Source of the DNA: Candidatus Nealsonbacteria bacterium
GTDB taxonomy: Bacteria; Patescibacteriota; Minisyncoccia; Minisyncoccales; PWPS01
DNA: 44,466 bases
NCBI GenBank assembly: GCA_003560095.1
Contig: PWJI01000043.1
Location: 1 to 44,466, forward strand
Direction: 5' to 3'
Part shown: piece by piece, positions 5,508 through 28,959 of the stretch
How the letters are laid out: each line of letters starts with the position of its first letter
How positions within the stretch are numbered: the first letter of the stretch is position 1
Position numbers and translations under genes: made by a program
The notes under the pieces: model-generated
The model's database searches: none
Seen by the model: only the letters and a program-made list of their open reading frames with translations
What the model was told of the DNA's origin: nothing

Positions 5508-5723
5508 ATGAAAGATGTTTTAAAAATAAGAATATTTTTTTTGATTTTGATATTTTTGCCATTTTATGTTTTTTCTCAAGAGCTTGAGCCCATTATAACA
5601 GAACCTTCGCAAATTATACAATTTTTCAATAATATAATCGAATATGCGGCGATTTTACTGGATAGTATTTTTGCATTTATTTCTAACATCATCTCGTCAT
5701 TTTTTCAACATTTTATCTCTTAA
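5508..5723 (+). CDS. Small exported/membrane protein with signal peptide (71 aa)
   Basis: Basic N-terminus, hydrophobic core, VFS|QE cleavage-like site, amphipathic C-terminal helix; start moved from TTG 5469 to ATG 5508. Confidence 0.6.
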   Translation: MKDVLKIRIFFLILIFLPFYVFSQELEPIITEPSQIIQFFNNIIEYAAILLDSIFAFISNIISSFFQHFIS

Positions 5724-5817
5724 GAGTTTTATAAAATATAATATAAGGAGAATATAATAAGCAAAAAAATAAGATGAAAGGGATTATAAAAAAATATTTA
5801 TCTAAAAATAACTGATT

Positions 5818-8735: not shown

Positions 8736-8766
8736 AAAAACAATATTTTATTATTTAAATTCTTCT

Positions 8767-9987: not shown

Positions 9988-9999
9988 TATTTTATACGT

Positions 10000-13533: not shown

Positions 13534-14787
13534 TTAAATTATTTCAAGAATTTCTTTTATTGTTTTCATTTTTTTGTCATTTAACATTTCTTTTTTTATC
13601 TTTCTGGAAACGGAAAGAGCTGTAAGGGGTTTGGTTTCTTTTACCTTAAACGAAGAAGGGTAGACTGCCTCAAGGTCTTTTTCAAGAATAAAAATCTCTT
13701 TTTCCTTTAAAAGATTTAATTTTTTTTCAAGAGATGTTTTTTTTCCCAATTTGGGAAATTTTTTTATTTTCATCAGAGATGAAGAGTTTAAGGCATCTCT
13801 GTCAAGCATAATTGCATAGGGAATGTTAAAAATATCACAAAGATTTGCATAAAGATCGACAGAGCCTTTGCCACTTGTATAAACAACCTTGATGTCTTTT
13901 TCTTTTTCATAAAAGCGATCAATCATTTCTCTCATAAATATAGAATCAGAAATTCCTTCCACCAAAAGAACTTTGTCTGAAAAAAGCATTCCTGAATTGT
14001 CGTCATTTATTTCTTGAACAAAACGGTCTAAGTCAACATTTTCTTTTTGAAGACCATAAAGGGCGGTACTTTGATTTTTATTGCGAGTAATTCTCCATAT
14101 ATGAGAAAGATACTTTGCTTGCACAAAAGATGGGTGATGTGTAGTGAAAAATATTTGATTTTTTAAATTTTCATCCTTGAGTAGTTGCAAAAACCTTCTA
14201 ATTATTGAAGGATGAAGATGTGTCTCGGGTTCATCGATGAGAATTATTTTGTATTCGGGGTGGAATATATAAAAAAGAATAACAAAAAGACGCTTGAATC
14301 CTTCGCCCATTCGTTTTACTGAACGTTTCTTTTTATCAGAGTATATATTACAAAGAAAAAGCTCTTCATTTATCTCAATTTCTTTAAAGTATTTTTCAAG
14401 AGAATGAGAGAAATTAGTATATTCTTGAGGGTGCTTTTTTTTAAATAACTGTAGATTCTTGGCAATCAAAGAGTAGTTAATTTTCTTATTGATACGAATA
14501 AAACTGTTTCTGAAGTGTATTTTGGGAACAGTTTCGATTTTTCCTTTTCTACAGGAGAGGAGATATTTTTTTCCTTTTTCTGATACAGTTATTGTGATAT
14601 CGGCATCGTTATCGGAAAACCTCTCCTTTTCTAATTTACTGTTAAAAAGAAAATCTATTGCATCTAGAATATTTGTTTTTCCGGCATTATTAGGACCCAC
14701 TAAAATATGAAAATTCAAAAAATCTCTTAAATGAATAGGGTCTTTAATGCTTTTATAATGATTGATTGCAATTTCTTGAATTTTCAT
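13534..14787 (-). CDS. OLD-family ATP-dependent endonuclease (ABC ATPase + TOPRIM)
   Basis: Walker A GPNNAGKT, Walker B LIDEPETHLHP, TTH switch, TOPRIM LLVEGISD and DRD. Confidence 0.9.
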   Translation of the reverse strand: MKIQEIAINHYKSIKDPIHLRDFLNFHILVGPNNAGKTNILDAIDFLFNSKLEKERFSDNDADITITVSEKGKKYLLSCRKGKIETVPKIHFRNSFIRINKKINYSLIAKNLQLFKKKHPQEYTNFSHSLEKYFKEIEINEELFLCNIYSDKKKRSVKRMGEGFKRLFVILFYIFHPEYKIILIDEPETHLHPSIIRRFLQLLKDENLKNQIFFTTHHPSFVQAKYLSHIWRITRNKNQSTALYGLQKENVDLDRFVQEINDDNSGMLFSDKVLLVEGISDSIFMREMIDRFYEKEKDIKVVYTSGKGSVDLYANLCDIFNIPYAIMLDRDALNSSSLMKIKKFPKLGKKTSLEKKLNLLKEKEIFILEKDLEAVYPSSFKVKETKPLTALSVSRKIKKEMLNDKKMKTIKEILEII

Positions 14788-14837
14788 ATAAAAATTATAA
14801 ATTATTTTTATTAAAAAGCAAAAACTCCTCTAAGCTC

Positions 14838-14865
14838 TTGCATAATTTTTATAATTACTTATAAT
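14838..14865 (+). promoter_or_regulatory. sigma70-type promoter TTGCAT-N16-TATAAT
   Basis: -35 at 14838-14843, -10 at 14860-14865, upstream of ATG 14911. Confidence 0.5.
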
Positions 14866-14910
14866 AATTAAAGGTTTTAAAGGTCGATTTAAACATTAAA
14901 TAAAACAGTT

Positions 14911-15234
14911 ATGGATACTAAAAAGATATTAATTATAATCGGTGTTGTTCTTGCTATTGTTGTTGTTGTTGCAGCTGTTTCCTTAATGGACACAGAGATG
15001 CCCGATTATGATGATGATCCTGTAGATGTACCTACTCCAGAGGATCCTACTGCTGATATAGAAACAGCGGAAGATTGTGAAGAAGAAGGATTTTACTGGT
15101 ATGATGACGCTTGTCACTTAGATCCGGAAGAAGATGAAGACGATGAAGATGATGAAGATGAGAATGATGAGGAAGACGAGGATGAAGAAGATGAAGAAGA
15201 TGAAGAAGAGGAAGAAGAGGAAGAAGAAGAATAA
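14911..15234 (+). CDS. Small membrane-anchored, extremely acidic protein
   Basis: N-terminal TM, CEEEGFYWYDDAC mini-motif, 35-residue almost pure Asp/Glu tail; own promoter and terminator. Confidence 0.8.
   Translation: MDTKKILIIIGVVLAIVVVVAAVSLMDTEMPDYDDDPVDVPTPEDPTADIETAEDCEEEGFYWYDDACHLDPEEDEDDEDDEDENDEEDEDEEDEEDEEEEEEEEEE
15127..15231 (+). repeat. Low-complexity GAN codon tract encoding poly-Asp/Glu
   Basis: Run of GAA/GAT/GAG/GAC codons with one AAT interruption. Confidence 0.85.
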
Positions 15235-15259
15235 ACAATCTTTCTTCAAAGAAAATAAG

Positions 15260-15297
15260 AACCCTTTCGGCAAAATGCTTGAGAGGGTTTTTGTTTT
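15260..15297 (+). terminator. Intrinsic terminator
   Basis: AACCCTTTCGGCA-aaa-TGCTTGAGAGGGTT hairpin (G-U pairs, one bulge) followed by TTTGTTTT. Confidence 0.75.
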
Positions 15298-15301
15298 GGT
15301 C

Positions 15302-15330
15302 TTGTTTGTTTGCCCTTAATATGATATTTT
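15302..15330 (+). promoter_or_regulatory. Putative promoter TTGTTT-N17-TATTTT with extended TGn
   Basis: Lies just after the terminator and 24 nt before ATG 15355. Confidence 0.35.
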
Positions 15331-15354
15331 TAACTCAAAATAAACTTTAAAAAA

Positions 15355-16410
15355 ATGTCTGTAGTAAAAAAAACTTTAATTATCGGTGGTTTTGTTTTTT
15401 CAACAGCTTTATTTACTTTTCTTTTTATCGAAGCCGGTAATCGTTTTTTCCCAAGAGAGGATGTTCCAACACTGGATGAAGGAAGAATTATCGCAGAAAA
15501 CTGGATAAAGAACTACTCTTCTCTTTATCCTCTTTACGGAAGAGATATTAAACTTCTCAACCAAGAGGAGATTGGCAGGGGAGAGTATAGGTTTACTTTT
15601 TCGTTTAATACTGTAAGGCCGGAATATGGTACTCATAAAAACGAGATAATTGTTGAAACTAAACACACGGAAATAGTTTATGCGATCACAAACAATATCT
15701 ATGATGAAATAGCCGGGAAATACATTGAGGACGAAGAAACAATATATGTTTATTTTGTTGTTAAGGAAGAGAATGAGGAAGGTGATATAGAAAGAAAGAT
15801 TGATTCTATAGAAAGAGAAGTATCTTTGTCGGTTCTTGAAAACATAAAAGAAACTTCACTAAAAGAATTATTGAAGGGCCCAAGTGATCAAGAGAGGCAA
15901 GGGGGGTACTCTACTCATATTAGTGAAGGAACAGAACTCGTCTTACTTAGGACAGAGGGAGAGGTTGCTTATGTGGGTCTTACTATTGATTTTAACGACC
16001 AGTCGGATATTGCAAAGAAGCAAATTGAAAAAACTCTTTCTCAGTTTGAAGAGATAACTACAGCAAGATCAAGTCAAGAGGTTGTAAGAGTTGTTGTGAG
16101 AGTAGAAAATGTTCCTGATGATTTTTGGTTTGGAGAAATGCTTGAAGAAGGAGATGAAAGAATAGATGTTAAATATTTACAAAAAGTTCTTAACGCTGAT
16201 CCGGAAACAATGATTGTGGATGAGGGAGTTGGTTCTCCGGGAGAAGAAAGTAATCAATTCTGCAAAAAGACAAGAGATGCAGTTGCTTCTTTTCAAAGAA
16301 AGTATCGTAGCGAAGTACTTGCTCCTGTAGGATTGATTTTAAGTACCGGTATTGTAAATGAAAGTACAAGAGATAAGCTTAATGCCATACTTCAACAAAA
16401 TAGATTATAA
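15355..16410 (+). CDS. Membrane-anchored GerMN-domain protein with C-terminal peptidoglycan-binding (PG_binding_1-like) domain
   Basis: LKELLKGPS..E...GYST.I GerMN motif; DVKYLQKVLN.DP...GSPG.E...KTRDAV..FQ.KY...TG.V...TR.KLN PG-binding pattern. Confidence 0.8.
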   Translation: MSVVKKTLIIGGFVFSTALFTFLFIEAGNRFFPREDVPTLDEGRIIAENWIKNYSSLYPLYGRDIKLLNQEEIGRGEYRFTFSFNTVRPEYGTHKNEIIVETKHTEIVYAITNNIYDEIAGKYIEDEETIYVYFVVKEENEEGDIERKIDSIEREVSLSVLENIKETSLKELLKGPSDQERQGGYSTHISEGTELVLLRTEGEVAYVGLTIDFNDQSDIAKKQIEKTLSQFEEITTARSSQEVVRVVVRVENVPDDFWFGEMLEEGDERIDVKYLQKVLNADPETMIVDEGVGSPGEESNQFCKKTRDAVASFQRKYRSEVLAPVGLILSTGIVNESTRDKLNAILQQNRL

Positions 16411-16456
16411 GCAAAAAGGTCGAATTATTGTTTAGTAGTTAATATTAGTTTAAAAT

Positions 16457-17263
16457 ATGTTTAGTAAAATTTTAGCAGGTTTAATTGTTGTTTTTCTTAT
16501 AATTATGATAGGTTTTTTTATAAGTACCTTAGATGTTCCGGACATGCCTGAAAGAAAAGATAATCAATTAAGTCAGGAGGACGTTGAAATGGTTAAAGAA
16601 TGGATTAAAGAAAATGCAAGTACCTATACTCAAAGAGGGGGGTTTGATTTAGAGCACTTAAGAACAGTAATAGTTGAGGAAAATATCTTTGAATTGAGTT
16701 TTTCTTTTCAATCTAATTATGCAGGATACGGCCCTAAAAAGGATGACGAGGTTGCTGCACAAGTAATAACGGATCATACTATAGTTGTAATTCTAAAAGA
16801 AGGAGATGTTGTGAGTGCCATTACTGACGAAAAATATGATGAAATAAAGGAAGAATTAATTGAGATGGAGGAAACAAAAGAAGAGGAAGAAGAAACAATG
16901 AAAGTCCGTTTGTATTTTTATTCAATTAAAGAAGGCTTAGAGGAGATTTCTTTTGTAGAAAGAGAGTTTTTAATTCCTGAAGATGAGAAACTTTATACTC
17001 TAAGCAGGTTAATTGAAGGACCGACAAAAGAAGAGCAAGAAAAAGGATATCAAACTGCAATAGAAGAAGGAGTAAAAATTAATTCTCTATATATTGAAGA
17101 TTCTGTCGCGTATGCTGATTTTAGTTATAAGCTTGATGCTTCCGGCTCTGCAAGAGTAACAATGATTAGGGATCAAATTGAAAAAACATTACTTCAGTTT
17201 AATAATGTAAGCGAGGTCATTATTTCAATTGAAGGAGAAACGGAAGAAATTTTGCAACCTTAA
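16457..17263 (+). CDS. Membrane-anchored GerMN-domain protein
   Basis: LIEGPTKEEQEKGYQTAI, AYADFS, GSARVTMIRDQIEKTLLQF..V..V.ISIEG.TEEILQP. Confidence 0.85.
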   Translation: MFSKILAGLIVVFLIIMIGFFISTLDVPDMPERKDNQLSQEDVEMVKEWIKENASTYTQRGGFDLEHLRTVIVEENIFELSFSFQSNYAGYGPKKDDEVAAQVITDHTIVVILKEGDVVSAITDEKYDEIKEELIEMEETKEEEEETMKVRLYFYSIKEGLEEISFVEREFLIPEDEKLYTLSRLIEGPTKEEQEKGYQTAIEEGVKINSLYIEDSVAYADFSYKLDASGSARVTMIRDQIEKTLLQFNNVSEVIISIEGETEEILQP

Positions 17264-17279
17264 TTTAATTAAGTTCATT

Positions 17280-17321
17280 ACAAAAAAGAAAACGGCAATA
17301 ACTTGCCGTTTTCTTTTTTGT
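17280..17321. terminator. Perfect 19-bp inverted repeat, likely bidirectional intrinsic terminator
   Basis: ACAAAAAAGAAAACGGCAA-taac-TTGCCGTTTTCTTTTTTGT, 16 nt after stop 17263. Confidence 0.9.
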
Positions 17322-17370
17322 GGTAAGTGTTGTAGAATGATTTAATATTTAAAGTAGATTTATTGATATA

Positions 17371-18246
17371 ATGATAAAAAACAAGAAGCCTCTAATTGGA
17401 GCTCACATCTCTTCTTCCGGAGGAATTCTGAAAATTCCCAAGCGAGCAAAAGAAATTGGCGCTGAATGTATTCAAATTTTTGCAGGGAGCCCAAAAAGAT
17501 ACGATGTGAGGATTCCGGAAAAAGAAAGTATAGATAAATACAGAGAAGAGCTTGAAAAAAACGGAATAAGTTTAGTTTATATTCATGCAAGTTATCTGTT
17601 AAATCTTGCCTCTGAAAAAAGTGAGCTAAAAAGAAAATCAATAGAAAGCCTCAAAAATACTCTCTATTTTTCTTCTGCAATAGGAGCAAAGGGTGTTGTT
17701 TATCATCCCGGATCACCAAAAGGAAAAGATAAAGAAAAAGCCATTTTTAGGGAAATTAAGTCACTTGAGGAAGTTATTTTAGATACCCCTGAAAGTTCAA
17801 CTGTTTTTATTGAGAATACTGCCGGAAAAAAGAAAATTGGAACAACTCAGGAAGAGATTGGTTTTATTGTTCATAAAATAAATTCTCCAAGAGTTAAGGT
17901 TTGTATTGATACTGCACATTCTTTTGAGGCTGGACTAATCGAAGATTTTGAGAAAAATAATATTTTATTCTGGCTCAAGGAATGGAAAAAGAAAATAAAT
18001 TTACACGACATAGGTTTACTTCATATAAATGATTCTCTAACAAAATTCAATTCTCAACACGATCGTCATGCAAATATAGGCCTTGGAGAGATAGGACTAA
18101 AGGGATTTAAGAATTTAATGGAAGTAGATGAATTACTTAATATTCCTTGGATAATAGAAGTTCCCGGATTTGAAAATGAAGGTCCAGACAAGAAAAATGT
18201 TGATATTTTAAAAAAAATAAGAAAAGAAAAAAATAACTTTGTTTAA
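17371..18246 (+). CDS. nfo: Endonuclease IV (AP endonuclease)
   Basis: IGAH.S..GG, HASYLLNL, HPG, ENTAG, VCIDTAH, HINDS, DRHANIG.G.IG. Confidence 0.96.
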   Translation: MIKNKKPLIGAHISSSGGILKIPKRAKEIGAECIQIFAGSPKRYDVRIPEKESIDKYREELEKNGISLVYIHASYLLNLASEKSELKRKSIESLKNTLYFSSAIGAKGVVYHPGSPKGKDKEKAIFREIKSLEEVILDTPESSTVFIENTAGKKKIGTTQEEIGFIVHKINSPRVKVCIDTAHSFEAGLIEDFEKNNILFWLKEWKKKINLHDIGLLHINDSLTKFNSQHDRHANIGLGEIGLKGFKNLMEVDELLNIPWIIEVPGFENEGPDKKNVDILKKIRKEKNNFV

Positions 18247-18296
18247 TTTTCTAAATTTTGCAATATAGTATATAATCATGGTTAAATTTATTTATA

Positions 18297-18575
18297 ATGA
18301 ATTTTCATATAATTGAAAAAAATATCATCAAAGCAATTTCCCAAAAAAAGGAACTAGAGATTTATTATCCTGAGACGGAGAATTCTCCGGCCGGATGGAG
18401 AAAAATAACTCCCCTTAGCGTTACAACCGATATTCCTCCCAGTGGAGAATTACTTGTTATTGATAAAGAGCCCTTAAGTCCGGGACATATTCTCAATGCC
18501 AAAGATAAAAAAAACAAGGAGGAGATAAAATCTTTTATCATTGGTAAAATTAAAAAGATAAAAGAAGTTAAATAA
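18297..18575 (+). CDS. Stand-alone WYL-like domain protein (92 aa)
   Basis: I.KAI.QKK.L.IYY...R.I.P..V...IL.A.D...IKSF...KI..I spacing matches the WYL pattern; no HTH. Confidence 0.55.
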   Translation: MNFHIIEKNIIKAISQKKELEIYYPETENSPAGWRKITPLSVTTDIPPSGELLVIDKEPLSPGHILNAKDKKNKEEIKSFIIGKIKKIKEVK

Positions 18576-20006
18576 ATGAATGAAATTTATCAAAAAATAA
18601 TAGAAAATGCCAAAGATGCAATAGTTATTATTTGTGATGATGTTGTTGAATATATTAACGAATATGGAGCAAAAAAACTGGGCTATAAAAAAGAAGAAAT
18701 TGTAGGCGCAAATTTCCTGAGCTTTGTGCCAGAAGAAGAAAGGGAAAATCTTGAAAAAGAATATAAGAGTACAATAAAGGGGGAAGAAAGTTTTTTATAC
18801 GAAACAAATTTTAGAACAAAAAATGGAAGAATTATTTTTTCTGAGATTCATGCTCAAAAAATAAATTACAAGGGGAAAATTGCAAGCCTTGCTTTTATAA
18901 GAGATATAACGGCAAGAAAAAAAACATCCGAAATTTTTCATCAACAAGAAGAAAGATTTGAGGCGGTTACCGAAAATACACCTGATATTATTGCGCGTTA
19001 TGACGAAGAAGGTCGCTATGTTTATATTAATGCAGCGGGAGAAAAAGAATTTAAAATAACAAAGAAAGAGGCTTTTTGGAGAACAGACGAAGACCTTGGT
19101 ATAAATAAAGAAAGAATCAAATCCCTCAAAGAGGCGATTGATTTGGTTTTTAAAAATAAAAAAAAGAAAACTTTTTATAGCGAGGGCAGTGCAGGTGATG
19201 CAAGAAAGTATTATTATACAATTCTTGTTCCGGAATTTTTTAAAGATGGGGACGTTAGCTCTGCGCTTAGTATTACAAGAGATATTACGGAGATAAGAGA
19301 AATTGATCAAGCAAAATCAGAGTTTATTGGTATTACATCACATCAGCTTCGATCTCCTCTTTCTGTTATTAACTGGTGCGCGCTTTCTCTTCTAAGAGGT
19401 GAAGAGGGAGAGCTTAATGAAGAAGAAAAAGATTATGTAAAAAGAATTTATGATTCTGTAAGAAAACTAATAAAAATAACAGATGTCTTTTTAAATACCA
19501 CAATGCTTGACTTAGAGATGTTTGTTTTTAACTTACAAACAACGGATGTAGTTGAGGAAGCAAAGAAAATAGCCAATGAGCTTACTCAAGCAGCTAAAGA
19601 AAAAGAAATAAAATTTCTTACTAAGTATGATAAAATTCCTCCTATAAAAATAGACAAAAGGGCATTGAAAATTATTTTAAGGGGTCTTCTTTCCAATGCA
19701 ATGGAGTATTCTTTCTCAAAAGGGAATGTTTTCTTTTCAATAAAGAGAACCTCTGAGGAAGAGTTGACCATTTTTGTAGGAGATGATGGTTGTGGAATAA
19801 ATAAAGAAGATCAAGAGAAAGTTTTTAGTAGATTTTATCGTGCAGAAAATGCAAGAAACATGAAGGCTTATGGAACAGGGCTTGATCTTTATTTAATAAA
19901 ATCCATTATTGAAAAAATAGAGGGAGATATTCGTGTTGAGTCTCCCAATCCTCATTTTAAAAAAGGAACTCTTTTTTCTGTTAAAATACCAATCTCTTTT
20001 AATTAG
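18576..20006 (+). CDS. Cytoplasmic PAS-PAS sensor histidine kinase
   Basis: Two PAS/PAC units ending RDIT, H-box SHQLRSPL, N-box LLSNA, G1 DDGCGI, F-box FSRFYR, G2 GTGLDL; no TM. Confidence 0.93.
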   Translation: MNEIYQKIIENAKDAIVIICDDVVEYINEYGAKKLGYKKEEIVGANFLSFVPEEERENLEKEYKSTIKGEESFLYETNFRTKNGRIIFSEIHAQKINYKGKIASLAFIRDITARKKTSEIFHQQEERFEAVTENTPDIIARYDEEGRYVYINAAGEKEFKITKKEAFWRTDEDLGINKERIKSLKEAIDLVFKNKKKKTFYSEGSAGDARKYYYTILVPEFFKDGDVSSALSITRDITEIREIDQAKSEFIGITSHQLRSPLSVINWCALSLLRGEEGELNEEEKDYVKRIYDSVRKLIKITDVFLNTTMLDLEMFVFNLQTTDVVEEAKKIANELTQAAKEKEIKFLTKYDKIPPIKIDKRALKIILRGLLSNAMEYSFSKGNVFFSIKRTSEEELTIFVGDDGCGINKEDQEKVFSRFYRAENARNMKAYGTGLDLYLIKSIIEKIEGDIRVESPNPHFKKGTLFSVKIPISFN

Positions 20007-20019
20007 ATAAATATTATTA

Positions 20020-23000
20020 ATGAGCTTTAAAGAAAGATATGCAAATCTTAATACAAGACAACGCTCAGCAGTTGATAGCACGGAGGGACCCTTGATGGTT
20101 ATTGCTGGACCGGGTTCCGGGAAAACAGAAGTTCTCGGTATGAGAATTGCCAATATTATAAAAAAAACAGACACTCCTCCCGGGAGTGTTTTATGTCTTA
20201 CGTATACCGATGCAGCTTCGGTTAATATGAGAGAAAGGCTTATTGATCTTATAGGAGAAGAAGCTTATCGAGTTTCCGTATACACATTTCATGCGTTTTG
20301 TAAAAAGATTATTGAAAATCACCCTGAGTATTTTTATAAGGGTGTCAGTTTTAATTTAGCGACAAGAGTAACTCAAACCGGAATAATTGAAAAAATATTA
20401 AACGAATTGGATTACAGTGATCCACTTTCCGGCTTTCATCCAAAGCTTGGCTTTGCTTATCTTAAAGACATAGAAAAAAGAATTTTTGAACTCAAAGAAG
20501 AGGGTATTTCTCCAAAAGATTTTCAAAAAATAATAGAAAAAAATGAAATATTTTTTAAAAAAATAGAGCCAAAAATTAATAATGTTTTTAAAGAGAGAGT
20601 TAGTAAAAAAACATTTTCAAAAATAGAGAGCTTTATTGATGATTTGGAAAAGATAAAAGAAGGGGAGTATCCATTTGGCATTACTTCAATAAATAAAGAA
20701 ATTGCTTTCTCTTTAAAAAAAATATTAAAAAAAGGAAGCACAAAAGAAATTTCAAAATGGAAATCCAAAAGAATTATTAAAAAAAATAAAAGATTTGTTT
20801 TGAAAGATGCTGAAAACACGGAAAAGATGAAAAGTTTTTCAAGGATTTATGAGAAATATCAAGAAGAAATGAGGAATGCGGGTTATTATGATTTTTCCGA
20901 TATGATTTTAGATGTTATAAAAGAAATGGAAAAAAATGAGGATCTTTGTAGTTTGATAAAAGAAAAATATCTCTATGTTCTTGTCGACGAATTTCAAGAC
21001 ACAAGCGGAGTACAAATGAGGTTCTTAAATTTACTTTTTAAAGACGATCAAGATAAAAATCCAAATATTTTTACGGTAGCCGATGACGATCAGGCTATTT
21101 ATAGATTCAGAGGTGCTGAGATTGCAAATATTTTAAGGTTTAAAGAAAGTTATCCTAAAACAAGAATTGTTGTCTTAAAAGAGAATTATCGTTCAGTAAA
21201 AGAAATATTGGATTTTTCATACAACACGATAAGAAAAGGAGAAGAGAGATTGGAAAATTACTTTCCTGAAATCAAAAAAAGACAAACAGCAAATAAAAAA
21301 AATAAAGGAAATATTTTTCATAAAGAGTTTAAGACAGAAGAAGAAGAATTTTCTTTTTTAGTAAAAGAAATTGAAAAAGAAATAAAAAAAACTTCTCCGG
21401 AAAAAATAGCTGTAATCGGAAGAACACACAATACCATCAAAAAGGCAATTTCATTTTTTTCCGGCAAAAAGATACCCGTGTATGCGGAAAGGAAGGAAAA
21501 TGTATTAGAAAAAAAACACATAAATGAAATTATAACGATTATAAGATTTGCAAAAACTTTACTTGATGGAAATAGTAGAGATGCTGATTCTTTTTTACCG
21601 GAAATACTGACTTATCCGTTTTGGGGAATAAAAAGAGAGGAAGTTTGGAAAATTTCCGTAATGTCTTATGAAAAAAACATTCCCTGGATAGAGTGTATGA
21701 AAAGAAGAAGAGAAACTTCTTGTATTGCGGATTTTTTATTAGACCTCTCCTTAAGGGTAAAAAATAGTTCGGCCGAAGAGTTGATTGATATTATAATTGG
21801 AAATAAGAAAGGAATTTTTTTAAGTTCTTTTAAGCAATATTATTTCTCAAGAAAAGAATTTAAAAATAATAAAGAAAATTACTTATCTCTTTTATCTTCA
21901 CTAAAATGCTTTATTAAGGCCACGCGTGAATATAAGATAGGTAGGCCCGTAATGGCAAAAGATCTGATTGAATTTGTTGATCTTTTAGAAAAAAACAATA
22001 TCCCTCTTTTAGATAAAAATCCTCTGATTTTAAACGATAATGCTGTTTCATTTATTACCGCACACAGCGCTAAAGGAAGAGAGTATGATTGTGTTTTTGT
22101 CTTAAATTGCAATCAGGGAGAATGGGCAAAGACAAGGAGTAGCAATAAAATATCCTTACCCCTTAATATGCCATTCGAGAAAGAGGCAAATAGCAGAGAT
22201 GATCATTTGAGGCTTTTTTATGTTACAATGACTCGGGCAAAAGAGAAAATTTATTTTATTTTACATAAAAAAGAAGAGAAAAGGGAAAATATACCTCTTG
22301 AATTTATCGAAGACTTGAAAAAAACAAAAGAAAAAATCTCTATTGAAAAAAACAAGCACTCCTTGTCACAAGAGGAAAATTTTTCTTTTTCCAGAAAAGA
22401 AAAGGATTATATTTTTCCTTTAGTAGAAAAATACAAGATAAGTGCAACGGGATTAACAAAATTTCTTAATGTTGAAGAAGGGGGCCCGACAGAATTTTTT
22501 GATAAAAATATATTAAGATTTCCCGAGAAAAAAAGCTTCTCTCTTTCTTATGGGACAGCAATTCATGAGGCTATTTCTTCCATCTATAATATTTTAAAAA
22601 AAGAGGGGAAAGTTATTTCAGAAAAGGAATTTATTTCTCTCTTCAAAAAAGCATTAATAAGAGAAAGGTTGCCGGAAAAAGATTTCAAGAAAGGCTATAA
22701 AAAAGGTAAAGAGGCTCTTTCGATTTTTTATAAAAAAAGAAAAAAAGATTTTATTTCAGAATACGAAATAGAGAAAAATTTTAAATACCAGAATTGTTTT
22801 GTAGGAGATATAGAAATTACCGGAAAAATAGACAAAATGATAAAGAAAGATAATGAAATAGAAGTAACAGATATTAAAACAGGAAAAAGTTTAAAAAACT
22901 TTAATGGGGTAGGGGACTATGAAAAAATAAAAGCATGGAAATACAGAAATCAACTAATTTTTTATAAAATATTAATAGAAAGCGCGCGAGATTATAAAGG

Positions 23001-23235
23001 AAAATATAATGTTAATCGAGGTATTTTAGAATTTGTAGAACCTAGTAACGAAAAAGAAATTGTTACTCTTCTACTTGAAATAGACAGCGAGGAAGCGAAA
23101 AGGCTAAGAAATTTAATTTTTATTATTGGAAAAAAAATAAAAAAATTAGACTTTCCTTCAACCAAAGAATATAAAGGAAAAGGAATTAGAGGAATTAGAG
23201 AGTTTGAAGAAGATATTATAAAAGGAAAAATATGA
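20020..23235 (+). CDS. UvrD/PcrA-family helicase fused to C-terminal PD-(D/E)XK (RecB-like) nuclease, AdnAB/AddA-like architecture
   Basis: AGPGSGKT, VDEFQD, DDDQAIYRFRGA, NYRS, TAHSAKGREY, RLFYVTMTRAK; C-terminal YGTAIH, GKIDK...DIKTG, QLIFY. Confidence 0.93.
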   Translation: MSFKERYANLNTRQRSAVDSTEGPLMVIAGPGSGKTEVLGMRIANIIKKTDTPPGSVLCLTYTDAASVNMRERLIDLIGEEAYRVSVYTFHAFCKKIIENHPEYFYKGVSFNLATRVTQTGIIEKILNELDYSDPLSGFHPKLGFAYLKDIEKRIFELKEEGISPKDFQKIIEKNEIFFKKIEPKINNVFKERVSKKTFSKIESFIDDLEKIKEGEYPFGITSINKEIAFSLKKILKKGSTKEISKWKSKRIIKKNKRFVLKDAENTEKMKSFSRIYEKYQEEMRNAGYYDFSDMILDVIKEMEKNEDLCSLIKEKYLYVLVDEFQDTSGVQMRFLNLLFKDDQDKNPNIFTVADDDQAIYRFRGAEIANILRFKESYPKTRIVVLKENYRSVKEILDFSYNTIRKGEERLENYFPEIKKRQTANKKNKGNIFHKEFKTEEEEFSFLVKEIEKEIKKTSPEKIAVIGRTHNTIKKAISFFSGKKIPVYAERKENVLEKKHINEIITIIRFAKTLLDGNSRDADSFLPEILTYPFWGIKREEVWKISVMSYEKNIPWIECMKRRRETSCIADFLLDLSLRVKNSSAEELIDIIIGNKKGIFLSSFKQYYFSRKEFKNNKENYLSLLSSLKCFIKATREYKIGRPVMAKDLIEFVDLLEKNNIPLLDKNPLILNDNAVSFITAHSAKGREYDCVFVLNCNQGEWAKTRSSNKISLPLNMPFEKEANSRDDHLRLFYVTMTRAKEKIYFILHKKEEKRENIPLEFIEDLKKTKEKISIEKNKHSLSQEENFSFSRKEKDYIFPLVEKYKISATGLTKFLNVEEGGPTEFFDKNILRFPEKKSFSLSYGTAIHEAISSIYNILKKEGKVISEKEFISLFKKALIRERLPEKDFKKGYKKGKEALSIFYKKRKKDFISEYEIEKNFKYQNCFVGDIEITGKIDKMIKKDNEIEVTDIKTGKSLKNFNGVGDYEKIKAWKYRNQLIFYKILIESARDYKGKYNVNRGILEFVEPSNEKEIVTLLLEIDSEEAKRLRNLIFIIGKKIKKLDFPSTKEYKGKGIRGIREFEEDIIKGKI

Positions 23236-24284
23236 AAAATAAAAGAATAATACTTCATATTGATATGGATTATTTTTTTGCTCAAATAGAGGAAAGAGAG
23301 AACCCGCGCTTTAAGGGTAGACCGGTTGTAGTTGGGGCAAACCCTAAGAAGGGAAAGGGGAGAGGTGTTGTTTCAACCTGTAACTATCATGCAAGAAAAT
23401 ATAAAATAAAATCAGGTATGCCGATATCAAGAGCTTATAAGCTTTGTCCTAAAGCAGTTTTTTTGCCTGTTAATATGAGTTTTTACAAAAAGGTTTCGTC
23501 TTCTATTTTTAAAAATATAGAAAAAAAACACAAGAAAATAGAAAAAATTTCTTTAGATGAGGCTTATGTTGATCTTACAAGTAGCGTAAAAAGTTTTAAA
23601 AAAGCAGAAGAAATTGGAGAAAAAATAAAAACAGAAATATTTAAAAAAGAAAAGCTAACTTGTAGCGTAGGTATTGCGGAAAATAAGATGCTCGCAAAAA
23701 TTGCTTGTGAGTTAGTTAAGCCAAACGGAATAAAGGTTATTAGCCCAAGCTCTTCTATAAAAGTAATTTCTAAGCTTGATATTGATATTATACCGGGCAT
23801 AGGACCAAAAACAAAAAAGAAAATCGAAGAGTATCTTGAAAAAGAAAACCCAAAAGTTTCTGATTTGCGTAAAATAAGAAAAAAGAAATTAATTCATATG
23901 TTTGGAAAAAGAGGATCTGATTTTTATCACAGGGCAAGAGCTATTGATAATTCTCCCGTAAAAAAGAAAAAAACAAAATCCATAGGAAAAGAAATTACTT
24001 TCCAAAAAGACACAAGAGATCCGCAAAAGATAACAAGTTGTTTTAGGGCATTAGTTTTTTCAGTAGCAAAAACTTTAAAAGAAAAAAATATTCCTCAAAA
24101 AGGAATTGTTGTTGTTTGCCGTTTTGATGACTTTCAAACTTACACAAAACAAATCTCTTTTGAGAAAAATTATTATAGTAGAGATTTTTTGTACAAAAAA
24201 AGTATACCCCTTCTTTTGCATTTTTTAGTTAAAGGAGGCAAGAAAATAAGACTCATTGGCTTTCGTGTTATTGTTTCCGATTAG
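23232..24284 (+). CDS. dinB: DNA polymerase IV (Y-family)
   Basis: HIDMDYFFAQIE, STCNY.AR, SLDEAY.D, KPNG, IPGIG; ATGA overlap with helicase gene. Confidence 0.96.
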   Translation: MKNKRIILHIDMDYFFAQIEERENPRFKGRPVVVGANPKKGKGRGVVSTCNYHARKYKIKSGMPISRAYKLCPKAVFLPVNMSFYKKVSSSIFKNIEKKHKKIEKISLDEAYVDLTSSVKSFKKAEEIGEKIKTEIFKKEKLTCSVGIAENKMLAKIACELVKPNGIKVISPSSSIKVISKLDIDIIPGIGPKTKKKIEEYLEKENPKVSDLRKIRKKKLIHMFGKRGSDFYHRARAIDNSPVKKKKTKSIGKEITFQKDTRDPQKITSCFRALVFSVAKTLKEKNIPQKGIVVVCRFDDFQTYTKQISFEKNYYSRDFLYKKSIPLLLHFLVKGGKKIRLIGFRVIVSD

Positions 24285-24288
24285 TAGT

Positions 24289-24316
24289 TTGATTTTTATA
24301 AATTTTTCTATATACT
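24289..24316 (+). promoter_or_regulatory. Putative promoter TTGATT-N16-TATACT for gdhA-xseA-xseB-uvrD
   Basis: -35 at 24289-24294, -10 at 24311-24316, ATG at 24338. Confidence 0.45.
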
Positions 24317-24337
24317 TCTCGAAAAAGAAAAAATAAA

Positions 24338-25540
24338 ATGGAAAATTTCTTAAGAGACACAAAAAGAAAAATTAAAAAAGAGGCTCAAAGAAGCAAAATA
24401 AATCAAGAGCTTCTTGAAAAAATTCTTTTGCCTGAAAGGATATTAGAATTTTCAATAAACTTAAAGGATAAGTATTTTCGCGCTTATAGATTTCAACATA
24501 GCAGTATTCTTGGTCCATACAAGGGCGGTATTAGATTTAGTGAAAGTGTTAAAAGAGATGAAGTAGAAGCACTTTCGATTTTGATGACAATTAAGTGTGC
24601 TCTTATTGATATTCCCTTTGGAGGAGGTAAGGGTGGTGGAGTTATTGATTTTCAGAAATTGGGGGAAAGAGAAAAAGAGGAATTTGCAAGAAAATACGTG
24701 AGAGGAATTTTTCCTATTATTGGATTTAATATCGATATACCTGCTCCGGATATAAATACAGATGAAAAAATTATCTCTACAATGAATAATGAATATTTAA
24801 AAATTAATAAAAAAAATAAATTAAGTTCTTTTACCGGTAAAAGAATTAAAGATGGGGGTGTTAGTGGGAGGGTTGAGGCTACCGGTTATGGAGGTTTTGC
24901 TGTTTTTGAAAAATTATGCGAAGAGATGAGAATAAAAAATCCCACAATCGGGATTCAAGGATTTGGAAATGTTGGGAAGAATTTTGCAAAATTCGCTTAT
25001 CAAAAAAAGCATAAAATTACTGCAATTACAAGCTCTGCAGGGGGAGTTGAGAAGAATAGCGGATTAGACATTGATTTGGCTTTAAAGAAAAATAAAATTG
25101 ATGCTGCTGGGGGCTTAAAAATAAGCAACGAAGAACTTTTAAAAAAACCCCTTGACGTTCTTGTTTTAGCTGCAGTAGATGGTGTTATAAATAAAAAAAA
25201 TGTTCATACGGTAAAAGCTAAATATATTATTGAACTTGCCAACGGTCCAATAACAGAAAGTGCGGAGAAAATATTGAACAGAAAAGGTGTATTGATTGTT
25301 CCCGACATTTTAGCTAACTCGGGAGGGGTTGCAGCGTCTTATTGTGAGTGGATACAAGAGAAAAGAAAAAAGCCATATAAAAAAGATGAGGTTTTTTCTT
25401 TTATTGAAAAAACCCTTAAGAGATCTTTTCTTGAGCTAATTAAGATGAGAAAAAAAAGTACAAAAGATATAACACTAAGAAGTGCAGGCTTCTCTCTAGC
25501 TCTATTTAGATTACAAAAAAAATTTCTAAAAGATAAATGA
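24338..25540 (+). CDS. gdhA: Glu/Leu/Phe/Val dehydrogenase (glutamate dehydrogenase-like)
   Basis: GPYKGGIRF, MTIKCA, PFGGGKGG, DIPAPD, FTGK, EATGYG, QGFGNVG, ELANGP, PDILANSGGV. Confidence 0.92.
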   Translation: MENFLRDTKRKIKKEAQRSKINQELLEKILLPERILEFSINLKDKYFRAYRFQHSSILGPYKGGIRFSESVKRDEVEALSILMTIKCALIDIPFGGGKGGGVIDFQKLGEREKEEFARKYVRGIFPIIGFNIDIPAPDINTDEKIISTMNNEYLKINKKNKLSSFTGKRIKDGGVSGRVEATGYGGFAVFEKLCEEMRIKNPTIGIQGFGNVGKNFAKFAYQKKHKITAITSSAGGVEKNSGLDIDLALKKNKIDAAGGLKISNEELLKKPLDVLVLAAVDGVINKKNVHTVKAKYIIELANGPITESAEKILNRKGVLIVPDILANSGGVAASYCEWIQEKRKKPYKKDEVFSFIEKTLKRSFLELIKMRKKSTKDITLRSAGFSLALFRLQKKFLKDK

Positions 25541-26841
25541 TGGCATACGAAAGAGCAAAACAAAGTCAAATTTTTTCGAGTAAACCTGTTTCGGTTTCGG
25601 ACTATATTTCAATACTAAATCAGCTTATCTCACGAGTTAATTTAAAAGTTATTGGCGAAGTTAGCGGAGTAAAGGTGGCGAGCAGTGGCCATGTTTATTT
25701 TTCTTTAAAAGATTCAAAAACCGGAGATATAATAAATTGCGCCATATGGAGGTCAATATACAACATGTGTGGAATTAAGATAGAAGAGGGTATGGAAGTT
25801 GTTTTGTCGGGATCTGCTGACATATATAAACCACGAGGAACGTTGACTTTTAAAGTAAAAACAATAGAGCTTGTAGGTGAAGGAGCTTTAAGAAAAGCTT
25901 ATGAAGAACTTAAAAAGAAGCTGGAAAAAAAAGGTCTCTTTGATGAGCAAAGAAAGCGCAAAATACCTTATTATCCTCATAGAATAGGTGTAATAACCTC
26001 AAAAAAAGGAGCTGCAATTCATGATTTTATTAATAATTTAGGTAAATTCGGCTTTAAGGTTCTTGTTTGTGATTCCAGGGTAGAAGGTCAAGAAGCGGTA
26101 GAAGACCTTATAAAATCTATCAAAATAATGAAAAAAAAGAGCTTGGATGTTTTGGTGATTGTTCGAGGAGGAGGATCATTGCAATCCCTTATGGCATTTG
26201 ATAACGAAATGCTCGTTACAGAAATTGCAAAATTTCCCGTGCCGGTAATTACAGGAATTGGTCATCACGAAGATATACCTTTAGCTTCTTTAGCTTCTGA
26301 TGCTTTCGAATCTACTCCAACAGCTGCAGCTCATCGTCTTTCGTGTGGATTTCAAGAAGCAAAAGAAAAAAATAGAAAATACGAAAAAATTATTTTTGAA
26401 AACTATCGAGATATTTTTCGTGAAAAAATAGAAAAATTTACTTTAAAAGAAGAAATAATTAAAAATTTCTTTAAAAATATTTTTGAAGAATACAGAAGGA
26501 GCGAAGAAAAAATCAAGAAAAGCATTAATTTGGCAACTTATTTCGTGAAAGAAGGAGAGAAAAGAATAAATAGAGACGCTAAGAACATATTTTCTTTCTT
26601 TTCCAGGGGAGTCAGGGAAAATGAAAATAAAATAAAAAGAGTTAGCAATATTATTTACTTAAATAATCCTCAAAAGCAATTACGTCTTGGTTATGCTATA
26701 ATAAAAAAAGATAAAAAAATCGTAAAAAGCATTGAGGAAATAAAAGAGGGAGACATAATTAGAGCAACATTATTTGATGGAGAGGTGGATTCCCAAATTA
26801 AAAATATTAAAGAAAAAAAACATGACAAAAGAAAACAATAA
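25537..26841 (+). CDS. xseA: Exodeoxyribonuclease VII large subunit
   Basis: SGHVYFSLKD, GEGAL...YE.LK.KL...GLFD, RIGVITS..GAA, RGGGS, ITGIGH, TPTAAA, LGYA. Confidence 0.97.
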   Translation: MMAYERAKQSQIFSSKPVSVSDYISILNQLISRVNLKVIGEVSGVKVASSGHVYFSLKDSKTGDIINCAIWRSIYNMCGIKIEEGMEVVLSGSADIYKPRGTLTFKVKTIELVGEGALRKAYEELKKKLEKKGLFDEQRKRKIPYYPHRIGVITSKKGAAIHDFINNLGKFGFKVLVCDSRVEGQEAVEDLIKSIKIMKKKSLDVLVIVRGGGSLQSLMAFDNEMLVTEIAKFPVPVITGIGHHEDIPLASLASDAFESTPTAAAHRLSCGFQEAKEKNRKYEKIIFENYRDIFREKIEKFTLKEEIIKNFFKNIFEEYRRSEEKIKKSINLATYFVKEGEKRINRDAKNIFSFFSRGVRENENKIKRVSNIIYLNNPQKQLRLGYAIIKKDKKIVKSIEEIKEGDIIRATLFDGEVDSQIKNIKEKKHDKRKQ

Positions 26842-27028
26842 TTTAACCAATAACTTAAAAAAGCTTTCTGAGATTGCGCAATGGTTTGAGGAATGTGAAG
26901 AAATTGACCTTGAGGAGGGACTTAAAAAAGTAAAAAACGCTACCAAGCTTATTAAAGAAAGTAAGGAAAGACTAAAGGAGATAGAGAACGAATTTGAAGA
27001 AGTAAAAAAAGAGCTTGACGAAGAATAA
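26822..27028 (+). CDS. xseB: Exodeoxyribonuclease VII small subunit
   Basis: L..L.EI...FE..EIDLEEGL...L...E helical pattern, overlapping the xseA end; start set at ATG 26822. Confidence 0.88.
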   Translation: MTKENNNLTNNLKKLSEIAQWFEECEEIDLEEGLKKVKNATKLIKESKERLKEIENEFEEVKKELDEE

Positions 27029-27042
27029 AAGACTTTTTGAAA

Positions 27043-28959
27043 ATGATTGAATTTGAAGAAAAGCTCAATAAAGAGCAATTAAAAGTGGTTTACGAGGGCG
27101 ACGGCCCTTGTCTTGTTTTGAGTGGCCCGGGAAGTGGCAAAACAAGAACTTTGGTTTATAGAGTTGCTTATCTTCTTGGAAAAAATGTTCCTCCCAATAG
27201 AATTTTACTGCTTACTTTTACCAAGAGAGCTGCAAACGAAATGATTTCAAGAATTAATAGCCTAACTATGAAAAAAGAAGGGGAAGTTCTTGGAGGAACA
27301 TTTCATCATGCTGCAAATTTCTTTTTAAAAAAATATTTTAAAAAAATAGACTATTTATCGAATTTTATTATTCTTGACGAAGAAGATTCTCGCTCGCTCA
27401 TATCATCAATAATTAAAGAAAAAGGAAAGAAAGATTCTTTAAAAGCTCCGGTTGCTCAAAGAATATTTTCTTTGTCAATTAATTCACTTAAGGAAATTGA
27501 TGAAATTATTGAAGATTATTTTGAATATCTTGATACAAACGCAAAAGAGTGTGCTTTGGGTATTTATAAAGAGTATTGTAAGAGAAAAAAAGAGAACAAT
27601 TTAATGGATTATGATGATCTTTTATTAAATTGGAATAATTTGCTTTTAATACCGGAAATCAGGGAGGAAATATCAAAACAATTTGAATATATTTTAATTG
27701 ACGAATATCAAGATACTAACACTCTTCAAAACGAAATTGTAAAGAAGATAAGTCAGGCTCATGGTAATATCTTAGTTGTTGGAGATGATTCTCAAAGTAT
27801 TTATTCTTTTAGAGCAGCTAATATTGGAAATATATTAAATTTTCCAAAAACATTTAAAAATAGTAAGTTATTTAAGCTTGAATTAAATTACAGAAGCACG
27901 CCTGAAATTCTCGAGGTTGCCAATAGAGTAATAAGAAGTAATACTCAAAAACTTGAAAAAAACTTAAAAAGTACAATTAAGTCAGGCTTTCCTCCTGCTA
28001 TTGTTTCATTTCCCAATTCATCAATGGAGGCAAGATTTGTGTATGAAAAAATAAAAGAAAAAGACTTATCAAAAACAGCGGTGTTGTTTCGTGCCCACTA
28101 TCATGCGGTTGAACTTGAAATGGAGCTTTTGAAACGAAATATACCTTATAACTTAAGAGGAGGAGTGCGTTTTTTTGAACAATTTCATGTTAAAGATATA
28201 ATTGCTTTTTTAAAAATATTTTTAAATTTTTATGATGAAATGTCGTGGCAAAGGCTACTTTTAAGACAAGAAAAAATAGGGGAGGCTGGGGCTAAAAAAA
28301 TAGTTAAAGAAATTTTTAAAAGAAAAAGCATGAAAGAATTTTTAAAAGAAAAAGAGGAAATTGTTTCCTTAATAAGAACTTCTACTGCAAAAGAAAAAGC
28401 AAAGAATTTTTTCTTGATTATTGAAGAAGCACAAGAAAAAGATACAGACAAAAAAATAAATCTTTTTTTGAGCAAATTCTACAACCATTTTTTGGATATT
28501 TCTTTTGAAAATTCTCTTGAAAGAAAAAAAGATATAAAGAAACTCATAGAAGTTTCTGAAAAATATGAAAGTGATGAAAAAATGATTTCTGATTTTTCCT
28601 TGAGTGAAGATTATCAAAAAGAAAGCCCTAAAGGGGGTGCTGTTACATTAAGCACAATTCATCAAGCAAAGGGACTTGAGTGGGAAAATGTTTTTATAAT
28701 ATCATTAAGAGAAGGAGATTTTCCTCATCTTAAATCTTTAGACGAAAATTTACTCGAAGAGGAAAGAAGGCTTTTTTATGTTGCAGTTACAAGATGTAAG
28801 CAAAATCTTTTCCTAACTTACTCAACATACAATTTTAAAAGTAAAAAAGTCTCTACACCGTCCAGATTTATAAAGGAAACAAGTCTTTTAAAAGAGGAAA
28901 GTTATCCCATAAATGACGAAGAAGTGGTTGAGGATAGTGACGAATGGGAGTTTTTTTAA
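27043..28959 (+). CDS. ATP-dependent DNA helicase, UvrD/PcrA/Rep family
   Basis: GPGSGKT, TFT.RAA.EM, DEYQDTN, VGDDSQSIYSFR, NYRST, TIHQAKGLEW, EEERRLFYVAVTR; start ATG 27043 (or TTG 27037). Confidence 0.95.
   Translation: MIEFEEKLNKEQLKVVYEGDGPCLVLSGPGSGKTRTLVYRVAYLLGKNVPPNRILLLTFTKRAANEMISRINSLTMKKEGEVLGGTFHHAANFFLKKYFKKIDYLSNFIILDEEDSRSLISSIIKEKGKKDSLKAPVAQRIFSLSINSLKEIDEIIEDYFEYLDTNAKECALGIYKEYCKRKKENNLMDYDDLLLNWNNLLLIPEIREEISKQFEYILIDEYQDTNTLQNEIVKKISQAHGNILVVGDDSQSIYSFRAANIGNILNFPKTFKNSKLFKLELNYRSTPEILEVANRVIRSNTQKLEKNLKSTIKSGFPPAIVSFPNSSMEARFVYEKIKEKDLSKTAVLFRAHYHAVELEMELLKRNIPYNLRGGVRFFEQFHVKDIIAFLKIFLNFYDEMSWQRLLLRQEKIGEAGAKKIVKEIFKRKSMKEFLKEKEEIVSLIRTSTAKEKAKNFFLIIEEAQEKDTDKKINLFLSKFYNHFLDISFENSLERKKDIKKLIEVSEKYESDEKMISDFSLSEDYQKESPKGGAVTLSTIHQAKGLEWENVFIISLREGDFPHLKSLDENLLEEERRLFYVAVTRCKQNLFLTYSTYNFKSKKVSTPSRFIKETSLLKEESYPINDEEVVEDSDEWEFF

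Follow-up and report, generated by a model that had tools for sequence, protein, structure and literature searches.

A stand-alone WYL-like protein family linked to a UvrD-type helicase-nuclease in Patescibacteria

When a small protein of no named family is encoded at the head of a run of closely packed genes, which of its neighbours does it serve? The question is raised by a 44,466-nucleotide (nt) stretch of DNA from Candidatus Nealsonbacteria bacterium (Patescibacteriota; contig PWJI01000043.1 of assembly GCA_003560095.1), the whole of which is referred to below as the window and which lies on contig C47 of genome G000 (768 kb, 99.7% complete). In the window, an open reading frame (ORF) for a protein of 92 amino acids (aa) is followed on the same strand by genes for a kinase, a helicase-nuclease and a DNA polymerase:

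18297-18575, + strand: small WYL-like ORF, 92 aa
18576-20006, + strand: PAS-PAS-HisKA-HATPase_c histidine kinase, 476 aa
20020-23235, + strand: UvrD-PD-(D/E)XK helicase-nuclease, 1071 aa
23232-24284, + strand: dinB, DNA polymerase IV, 350 aa

The role in which WYL domains are mainly known is that of a ligand sensor tied to a helix-turn-helix (HTH) in the same chain. The first-pass annotation of the window recognized the small protein as WYL-like, remarked on the absence of an HTH, and took the four genes for a damage-signalling operon in which a nucleic-acid sensor feeds a phosphorelay. Its coordinates, domain calls and gene junctions agree with the ORF list and with Pfam. The TAA of the small ORF abuts the ATG of the kinase with 0 nt between them, 13 nt separate the kinase from the helicase-nuclease, the helicase-nuclease and dinB share 4 nt, and the next gene begins 53 nt beyond dinB. 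The comparative evidence keeps the WYL fold and leads away from the kinase toward the helicase-nuclease.

Judged by sequence comparison, the small ORF is a real conserved protein and not a chance reading frame, since it has 136 homologues at E <= 0.01 (141 candidates) and an alignment of 45 sequences holds 17 invariant columns (E21, I22, Y23, Y24, T27, W34, R35, D45, E51, G63, H64, I65, F80, I81, G83, K84 and I85). All 136 homologues are 50-161 aa long; none comes with a precomputed Pfam assignment, and none bears any name but 'hypothetical protein'. Of the 27 other genomes in the taxonomic family of the window, 26 carry the protein, with one match each, the lone miss being a genome that is 66% complete. 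Elsewhere in the order, 3 of 33 genomes of other families have it, and a phylum-wide sample of 201 genomes contained it once, in G000 itself. Among the 11 matches of an all-length search there was no helicase-fused form, and the only fused form was P0123 (227 aa, from the representative library), in which a MazG nucleotide pyrophosphohydrolase domain (residues 32-109) is joined to a WYL-like domain (122-211).

The predicted structure of the small protein has the WYL fold. The AlphaFold2 model, built from the 45-sequence alignment (predicted local distance difference test 87.3, predicted template modelling score 0.76), consists of an N-terminal helix (residues 3-16) and a five-stranded Sm/SH3-like barrel (strands 20-24, 33-43, 65-70, 77-81 and 87-90), with a conserved loop of about 20 residues (about 44-64) joining strands 2 and 3 and a chain that stops 2 residues past the last strand. 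When the model was compared with the PDB using Foldseek, WYL-domain regulators (BrxR, CapW, DriD and PafBC) filled ranks 1-29. The best match was BrxR 7qfz (E 5.3e-4, TM 0.64, root-mean-square deviation [rmsd] 2.4, 89 columns), and most WYL matches had a TM of about 0.6 and an rmsd of 2.3-3.0. In a VIA-align comparison with 48,161 chains, the top 9 were all WYL (Z 9.1-10.6, 73-76 residues aligned), led by CapW 9c5g (Z 10.6, rmsd 2.3, 74 aligned); outside WYL, designed SH3 barrels reached Z 8.2, Hfq 7.0-7.5 and YaeO 7.0, with Hfq/Lsm chains overall at 5-7.5.

Sequence profiles lead to the same family at lower strength. Pfam WYL (PF13280) gave the window protein 11.7 bits (E 0.26), under the 21.8 cut-off. 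Of the 45 members, 38 matched the model, all of them below or close to its threshold and the best with E 9.2e-5; no other family recurs. An hhalign comparison of the family with nine canonical WYL domains drawn from genomes of the same phylum gave a probability of 70.7 and E 3.8e-5 over 74 columns, a match of moderate strength. The family profile searched against PDB sequences returned two matches at E <= 10, a cyclophilin (0.11) and CapW 9c5g (1.2), neither of them significant. Pfam and NCBIfam scans found no HTH family in the small protein, the model being a single helix plus barrel, and its 92 aa hold no WCX dimerisation domain. Both the WYL-like call and the remark on the missing HTH are therefore upheld by the structural and profile searches. 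We describe the protein as a single-copy member of the WYL (Sm-like beta-barrel) superfamily that is specific to its lineage and stands alone, without HTH or WCX.

A protein of this shape might also be read without any regard to its neighbours, as an Sm-like binder of RNA or nucleotides (an Hfq-like chaperone or a small-ligand sensor) whose proximity to repair genes is inherited synteny. A free-standing chain of about 90 residues that folds into a helix and five strands has the Sm/Hfq architecture, and Hfq, YaeO and Lsm chains are indeed recovered at Z 5-7.5. Furthermore, Hfq (PF17209) is unmatched in the 99.7%-complete G000, and a single copy that is near-universal in its taxonomic family has the look of housekeeping. 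However, WYL is clearly the better match (Z 9.1-10.6 against 7.5 at most for Hfq/Sm), the sequence profiles favour WYL over Hfq, and a range of 1 in 201 genomes across the phylum would be unusual for a general RNA chaperone. Neither the Hfq nor the LSM family was matched in Pfam scans of the window proteins or the 45 members. We regard this reading as doubtful, though of real weight, and return to it with the evidence of gene order.

The ligand-contact positions were mapped by profile alignment rather than from superposed coordinates. The WYL domains of CapW bind single-stranded DNA (ssDNA), and the contacts named are S144, R164, R168 and R184 (PMC11662680). In hhalign, the canonical R-x-F-R-x-D-R-I pairs with K-S-F-I-I-G-K-I, in which the R-x-F-R segment corresponds to K78-S-F-I81, as the first-pass annotation had read it when it warned that ligand binding may be altered. 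The strand that bears RWHVR in CapW (PMC11662680) is G-H-I-L-N in the small protein.

Gene order within the taxonomic family shows which neighbour is constant. Whole-genome searches for the WYL-like gene and for the helicase-nuclease were combined by position, which left 24 genomes assessable and four further family genomes unassessable because of contig breaks or missing matches. In all 24, the WYL-like gene is upstream of the helicase-nuclease on a shared contig and strand, with one gene between. The identity of that middle gene varies. In genera g1 and g171 (14 genomes) the pair is 1134-1555 nt apart, the size of the kinase; in genera g170 and g172 (10 genomes), which we call X-type, the distance is 660-707 nt. 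The X-type middle gene was read in all ten loci (nine short-gap loci and L006). In 10 of 10 loci its product is about 225-243 aa long, is acidic at the N-terminus and has a single hydrophobic/transmembrane helix, and 9 of the 10 proteins weakly match metzincin-type zinc proteases around the HExxH motif. This membrane metzincin-like protein is unrelated to the kinase, and its gene has equally tight junctions.

The upstream flank also differs by genus, being a Germane-domain (germination-like) protein/nfo, a 119-aa protein, or a cytidylyltransferase. The nfo gene is 5' of the WYL-like gene in seven loci (L001, L004, L005, L006, L012, L013 and L014). Since the middle and upstream genes turn over and the order of the pair is kept, the WYL-like gene and the helicase-nuclease are the constant pair and the kinase is a replaceable insert. 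Different genes can fill the slot: two genera have a PAS histidine kinase there, and two others a membrane metzincin-like protein. We note separately that a conserved protein of 119-121 aa is encoded directly 5' of the WYL-like gene in 7 of 8 genus g170 loci (L067 and L070-L075), and that the one copy scanned had no Pfam family.

On sequence evidence, the constant partner combines in a single chain a UvrD-family Superfamily 1 helicase and, at the C-terminus, a PD-(D/E)XK nuclease, an AddA/RecB-like architecture (Pfam UvrD-helicase 1.6e-64, UvrD_C 1.3e-28, and PDDEXK_1 6.5e-13 at residues 823-1046). It falls under every NCBIfam equivalog cut-off, including those of UvrD and Rep; the best score is for PcrA, with 290.3 of 911.2 bits, compared with 115.9 of 707.65 for AddA and 127.6 of 696.05 for RecB. 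PDDEXK_1 genes number only three in G000.

The last gene of the four is less constant. dinB carries IMS and IMS_C domains and passes the Pol IV equivalog NF002677 (318.3 bits, cut-off 256); it follows the helicase-nuclease in 5 of 10 assessable related loci and was beside the WYL-like gene in none of the 26 loci whose neighbours were scanned. It is a variable member of the block. The same counts bear on the idea that the small protein is a YolD-like accessory of a Y-family polymerase. YolD proteins are small, stand-alone members of the WYL superfamily, found in SOS/Y-family polymerase operons and proposed as UmuD counterparts (PMC6511836, PMC4012209), and dinB is two genes downstream in the window. 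The likeness extends to a small stand-alone WYL-superfamily protein set among damage-tolerance genes (PMC6511836, PMC4012209). However, dinB is dispensable in the block and never directly adjacent to the WYL-like gene, the small protein has no YolD (PF08863) profile match, and no match to the YolD model was found at E <= 10 among the 45 members, in a search whose HMMER filters drop most weak matches. We consider a YolD-like role very unlikely.

The kinase that occupies the slot in the window has the make-up of a sensor histidine kinase. Pfam places PAS domains at residues 14-113 and 133-241, HisKA at 246-311 (35.4 bits, cut-off 26.9) and HATPase_c at 360-473 (75.7 bits, cut-off 26.4), and H256, N374, D403/G405/G407 and G433/G435 are invariant across 10 orthologues, as expected of a two-component sensor histidine kinase with intact catalytic motifs. 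The annotation's description of a soluble kinase without an adjacent regulator was accurate: the highest 19-residue Kyte-Doolittle mean is 0.96, with no hydrophobic segment, and no receiver domain lies beside the kinase. The six receiver matches of G000 are all elsewhere, the nearest at window positions 43334-43723. In some relatives the kinase is membrane-anchored, as at locus L076 (G221:C16, 872-2461, - strand, genus g171), where the orthologue of 529 aa has a hydrophobic N-terminal extension before PAS-PAS-HisKA-HATPase_c. A read-through fusion of the small ORF and the kinase was considered and rejected; the two are in frame in the window with one TAA between them, but only about 5 of 13 loci are in frame, compared with one in three expected by chance.

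The adjacency itself is not peculiar to this genome. Among 39 related loci from species-level genomes, 12 (L001-L005, L007 and L009-L014) have the kinase between the small gene and the helicase-nuclease and the whole syntenic block in common, and within the family the kinase-type arrangement is found in the 14 genomes of two genera. This recurrence is part of the case for a pathway in which the WYL-like protein senses ssDNA and modulates the adjacent PAS-PAS kinase, an unlinked response regulator then controlling end resection and translesion synthesis. The confirmed WYL fold, the abutting stop and start codons in the window, the intact catalytic motifs of a kinase that lacks an adjacent regulator, and the presence of K or R at the canonical first Arg position of the motif in every kinase-type locus are all in accord with it. 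A functional precedent is offered by CapK of the CapK/CapS system, a serine kinase of HTH-STAS-GHKL architecture that responds to ssDNA by becoming active and works with a STAS-wHTH (winged HTH) repressor (PMC13373217). CapK would be a functional analogue, from ssDNA sensing to a GHKL-type kinase (PMC13373217), only if the WYL-to-kinase model were right; it has no WYL domain, and the window kinase is of the canonical PAS-HisKA-HATPase_c two-component type.

Against such a pathway stands the behaviour of the kinase across relatives. It is replaced by the membrane metzincin-like gene in 10 of the 24 family genomes, its orthologue was not found in four X-type genomes (best matches 29-38% identical, partial and elsewhere, compared with the full-length copy, 44% identical, in the slot of kinase-type G215), and none of the 25 related loci outside the block has a kinase as its immediate neighbour, L031 having only an unrelated one two genes upstream. 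Because K or R at the first motif position is also found in X-type genus g172, this residue does not track the kinase. A partner regulator was sought by phyletic pattern, and neither of two orphan regulators of G000 co-varies with the kinase: orthologues of the receiver-only orphan at 43334-43723 are found order-wide, and the 211-aa orphan is missing in two kinase-type genomes, G215 and G205, and occurs in an X-type one, G217. Consequently, the proposal of a nucleic-acid sensor that feeds a phosphorelay is not sustained, and we judge this pathway improbable.

The adjacency can also be explained by a single event. Parsimony suggests that the kinase-type arrangement is derived. A conserved C-terminal tail of the WYL-like protein (ending in F-x-P-R-x-x-W-K-V-E-F) is present in 10 of 10 X-type and 11 of 13 other-context aligned sequences and is missing from all 11 kinase-type rows (10 distinct genomes), including the window, which are exactly the loci that have the kinase. 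In the relatives it is only 15-20 residues long. A single rearrangement in the common ancestor of the two genera would have brought the kinase gene into the slot, and the same event would have removed the tail, which could have been a docking peptide that was lost on arrival of the kinase gene. The kinase is probably not part of the core function of the WYL-like protein.

What, then, may the WYL-like protein do beside a helicase-nuclease? The explanation we tentatively favour, by analogy and with rather less than full conviction, is that it is a trans-acting nucleic-acid-binding accessory or regulator of that enzyme, since the WYL domains of CapW bind ssDNA and other WYL domains are found fused to Superfamily 1 helicases, Cas3, and Mrr-like and HNH nucleases (PMC4012209). 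A further example of a helicase with such a module is the PIF1 helicase of Thermotoga elfii, which has an accessory ssDNA-binding WYL domain (10.1101/163188). The small protein would be the free-standing counterpart of these fused domains. It would bind a nucleic-acid ligand, most likely ssDNA or DNA ends, and serve the helicase-nuclease in trans, as an accessory or a regulatory subunit, in end processing and repair. The helicase- and nuclease-fused WYL domains (PMC4012209) offer the closest functional analogy to the linkage in the window, with the difference that they are in one chain with the helicase, whereas the small protein is a separate polypeptide encoded two genes upstream.

Several observations weigh against an accessory of the helicase-nuclease, and the first of these is that its function is inferred from fold and gene order. 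The 24 of 24 linkage comes from one taxonomic family, whose members are kin and not independent. The junctions between the small gene and the kinase, which range from -8 to +14 nt over the 12 kinase-type loci, are what co-translation of these two genes would look like; they are the same tight junctions that speak for the kinase pathway. Three of the four CapW contact positions appear not to be kept in the small protein, and the first motif position is K, R or H within the taxonomic family and D, N, H, S, G or Q in other loci. The altered motif positions, together with an invariant set of the family's own (Y23, Y24, T27, W34, R35, D45, E51, H64 and K84), indicate that the ligand or the binding mode may differ from those of canonical WYL domains. 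Moreover, in none of 10 genomes that carry the WYL-like gene in a blockless locus was the nuclease-specific part of the helicase-nuclease found with this query, so the WYL-like family can exist without that enzyme. Finally, because the window is rich in repair genes (nfo, xseA, a second UvrD, a PDDEXK_1 protein and a uracil-DNA glycosylase), part of the proximity to nucleases may be inherited synteny.

The blockless loci (L015-L039, n = 25), which are of varied contexts, speak to both the accessory role and the neighbour-independent Sm-like binder. Their commonest neighbour is a free-standing Cas4-like PD-(D/E)XK nuclease, within 4 kb in 10 of 25, and when the UvrD fusion is included a PD-(D/E)XK nuclease is nearby in 21 of the 39 related loci. 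The other neighbours are mostly nucleic-acid or nucleotide enzymes, including NYN, HD and Exo_endo_phos proteins, a DNA alkylation repair enzyme, ATP-cone and Mrr-like proteins, and RelA/SpoT. Such diversity of context is what a neighbour-independent protein would show; the one MazG fusion points to nucleotides, and the canonical ssDNA-contact arginines are mostly replaced. The order of the WYL-like gene and the helicase-nuclease in 24 of 24 genomes, kept despite turnover of the middle gene and of the upstream flank, counts on the other side.

The accessory role has a more elaborate variant that takes in the slot gene. The WYL-like protein could be a trans sensor of the ssDNA made by the helicase-nuclease, signalling to an interchangeable downstream output enzyme, either the kinase or the membrane zinc protease. 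We rate this idea as distinctly improbable. If it were true, one locus would parallel WYL repressors, ssDNA-activated proteases and ssDNA-activated kinases. As regards the damage response of this genome, RecA is present in G000, and no single ORF with both halves of LexA was found there; a marginal Peptidase_S24 match (23.3 bits, at the cut-off) is in a 186-aa ORF on contig C21 and a marginal LexA_DNA_bind match (25.9 bits) in a 240-aa ORF on contig C20.

How new is the family? CapW/BrxR, DriD and PafBC have the same fold as the small protein, including the pre-barrel helix (model residues 1-92 against CapW 119-192), and a detectable profile similarity to it, and they too are set among DNA-repair genes. 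However, these regulators carry a wHTH and a WCX domain, and the small protein, at 92 aa in total, has neither. The solved WYL domains lack its loop of about 20 residues between strands 2 and 3, and about 74 of its 92 residues align with them. It cannot by itself be a transcription factor and is outside the wHTH-WYL-WCX class. No description of this WYL-like family or of a WYL-histidine kinase pair was found in a literature search that screened titles and the openings of abstracts and left supplements, including the architecture lists of PMC4012209, outside its scope. What is new is an unannotated, helicase-nuclease-linked, stand-alone WYL family in Patescibacteria; stand-alone WYL-like proteins were already known in YolD.

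A defence-system reading was also considered, and there is no case for it. Of four family proteins scanned with PADLOC, the window copy and P0006 were unmatched and the matches of the others were weak (P0122 to WYL, E 0.003; P0126 to the AbiEii C-terminal model, E 0.0005); the helicase matches GajB models only generically, as a UvrD helicase. In PHROGs, 2 of 8 family proteins weakly matched phrog_13105, of unknown function (E 0.001-0.004). As a lead only, the nearest clusters in a protein atlas are proteins of 84-95 aa, mostly phage-labelled, and one 87-aa cluster has PF13280 in 70% of its members.

The remaining features of the window to which we refer are the following:

7536-13529: glycogen-metabolism cluster (GT4 glycosyltransferase, GH57, glycogen synthase, amylo-alpha-1,6-glucosidase-like protein)
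13534-14787, - strand: OLD-family protein, 417 aa, AAA_21/AAA_15 ATPase with OLD-like TOPRIM
17371-18246, + strand: nfo, endonuclease IV-like apurinic/apyrimidinic (AP) endonuclease, AP_endonuc_2 2.2e-40
18247-18296, + strand: AT-rich spacer of 50 nt, with TATAAT at 18271-18276 and a second copy at 18293-18298 that overlaps the start codon
24338-25540 and 25537-26841: glutamate dehydrogenase, then xseA (exonuclease VII large subunit), with a 4-nt overlap
26774-27028, + strand: ORF of 84 aa that overlaps the end of xseA, where the small subunit of exonuclease VII would be expected; without a Pfam family at E <= 1e-5
27037-28959: second UvrD/PcrA-type helicase, 640 aa
30718-31782: PDDEXK_1 protein, 354 aa
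31784-32377: uracil-DNA glycosylase

The transcription signals add little to the choice between partners. The window is AT-rich (GC 0.28-0.34), and the TATAAT at 18271-18276, which the annotation took for a promoter element, is one of 92 copies. Over the whole window these copies are in excess of the 53.2 +/- 8.4 found in dinucleotide shuffles, none of 100 shuffles reaching 92; several of them are grouped in intergenic spacers, for example at 5592-5788, 14754-14939 and 18271-18313. A scan of positions 15000-28000 for paired -35/-10 hexamers returned 46 sites, compared with 46.5 +/- 7.0 in shuffles, and the 18271 copy was not among them. Because the hexamer is common in the window and the paired scan is at chance level, promoter calls carry no weight here; the hexamer is present, but its promoter status does not rise above background. 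Three DNA sequencing runs contain this stretch, and no RNA run that does was listed.

In the same interval, intergenic terminator-like hairpins on the + strand occur only at 15252-15297 and 27092-27111, and between them lie ten genes rather than the four of the proposed operon: those for two Germane-domain proteins, nfo, the small ORF, the kinase, the helicase-nuclease, dinB, glutamate dehydrogenase, xseA and the 84-aa ORF. Note also that glutamate dehydrogenase and xseA, whose functions are unrelated, overlap by 4 nt; in a genome this compact, close packing of two genes does not mean that they work together.

Together with the downstream second UvrD/PcrA-type helicase, PDDEXK_1 protein and uracil-DNA glycosylase, the block forms a repair-rich stretch of about 15 kb. 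The OLD-family protein matches the PADLOC models Old, AriA and GajA and is a lone defence-type gene; it is about 5 kb from the UvrD-type helicase on the opposite strand and is not its neighbour.

The reading of the locus as a damage-signalling operon rests on the kinase, a replaceable insert, and the comparative data do not back it. If instead the WYL-like protein is a trans-acting accessory of the helicase-nuclease, it would show how DNA-end processing is controlled in minimal genomes that lack the usual RecBCD/AddAB partners, and the family would gain a name based on function.

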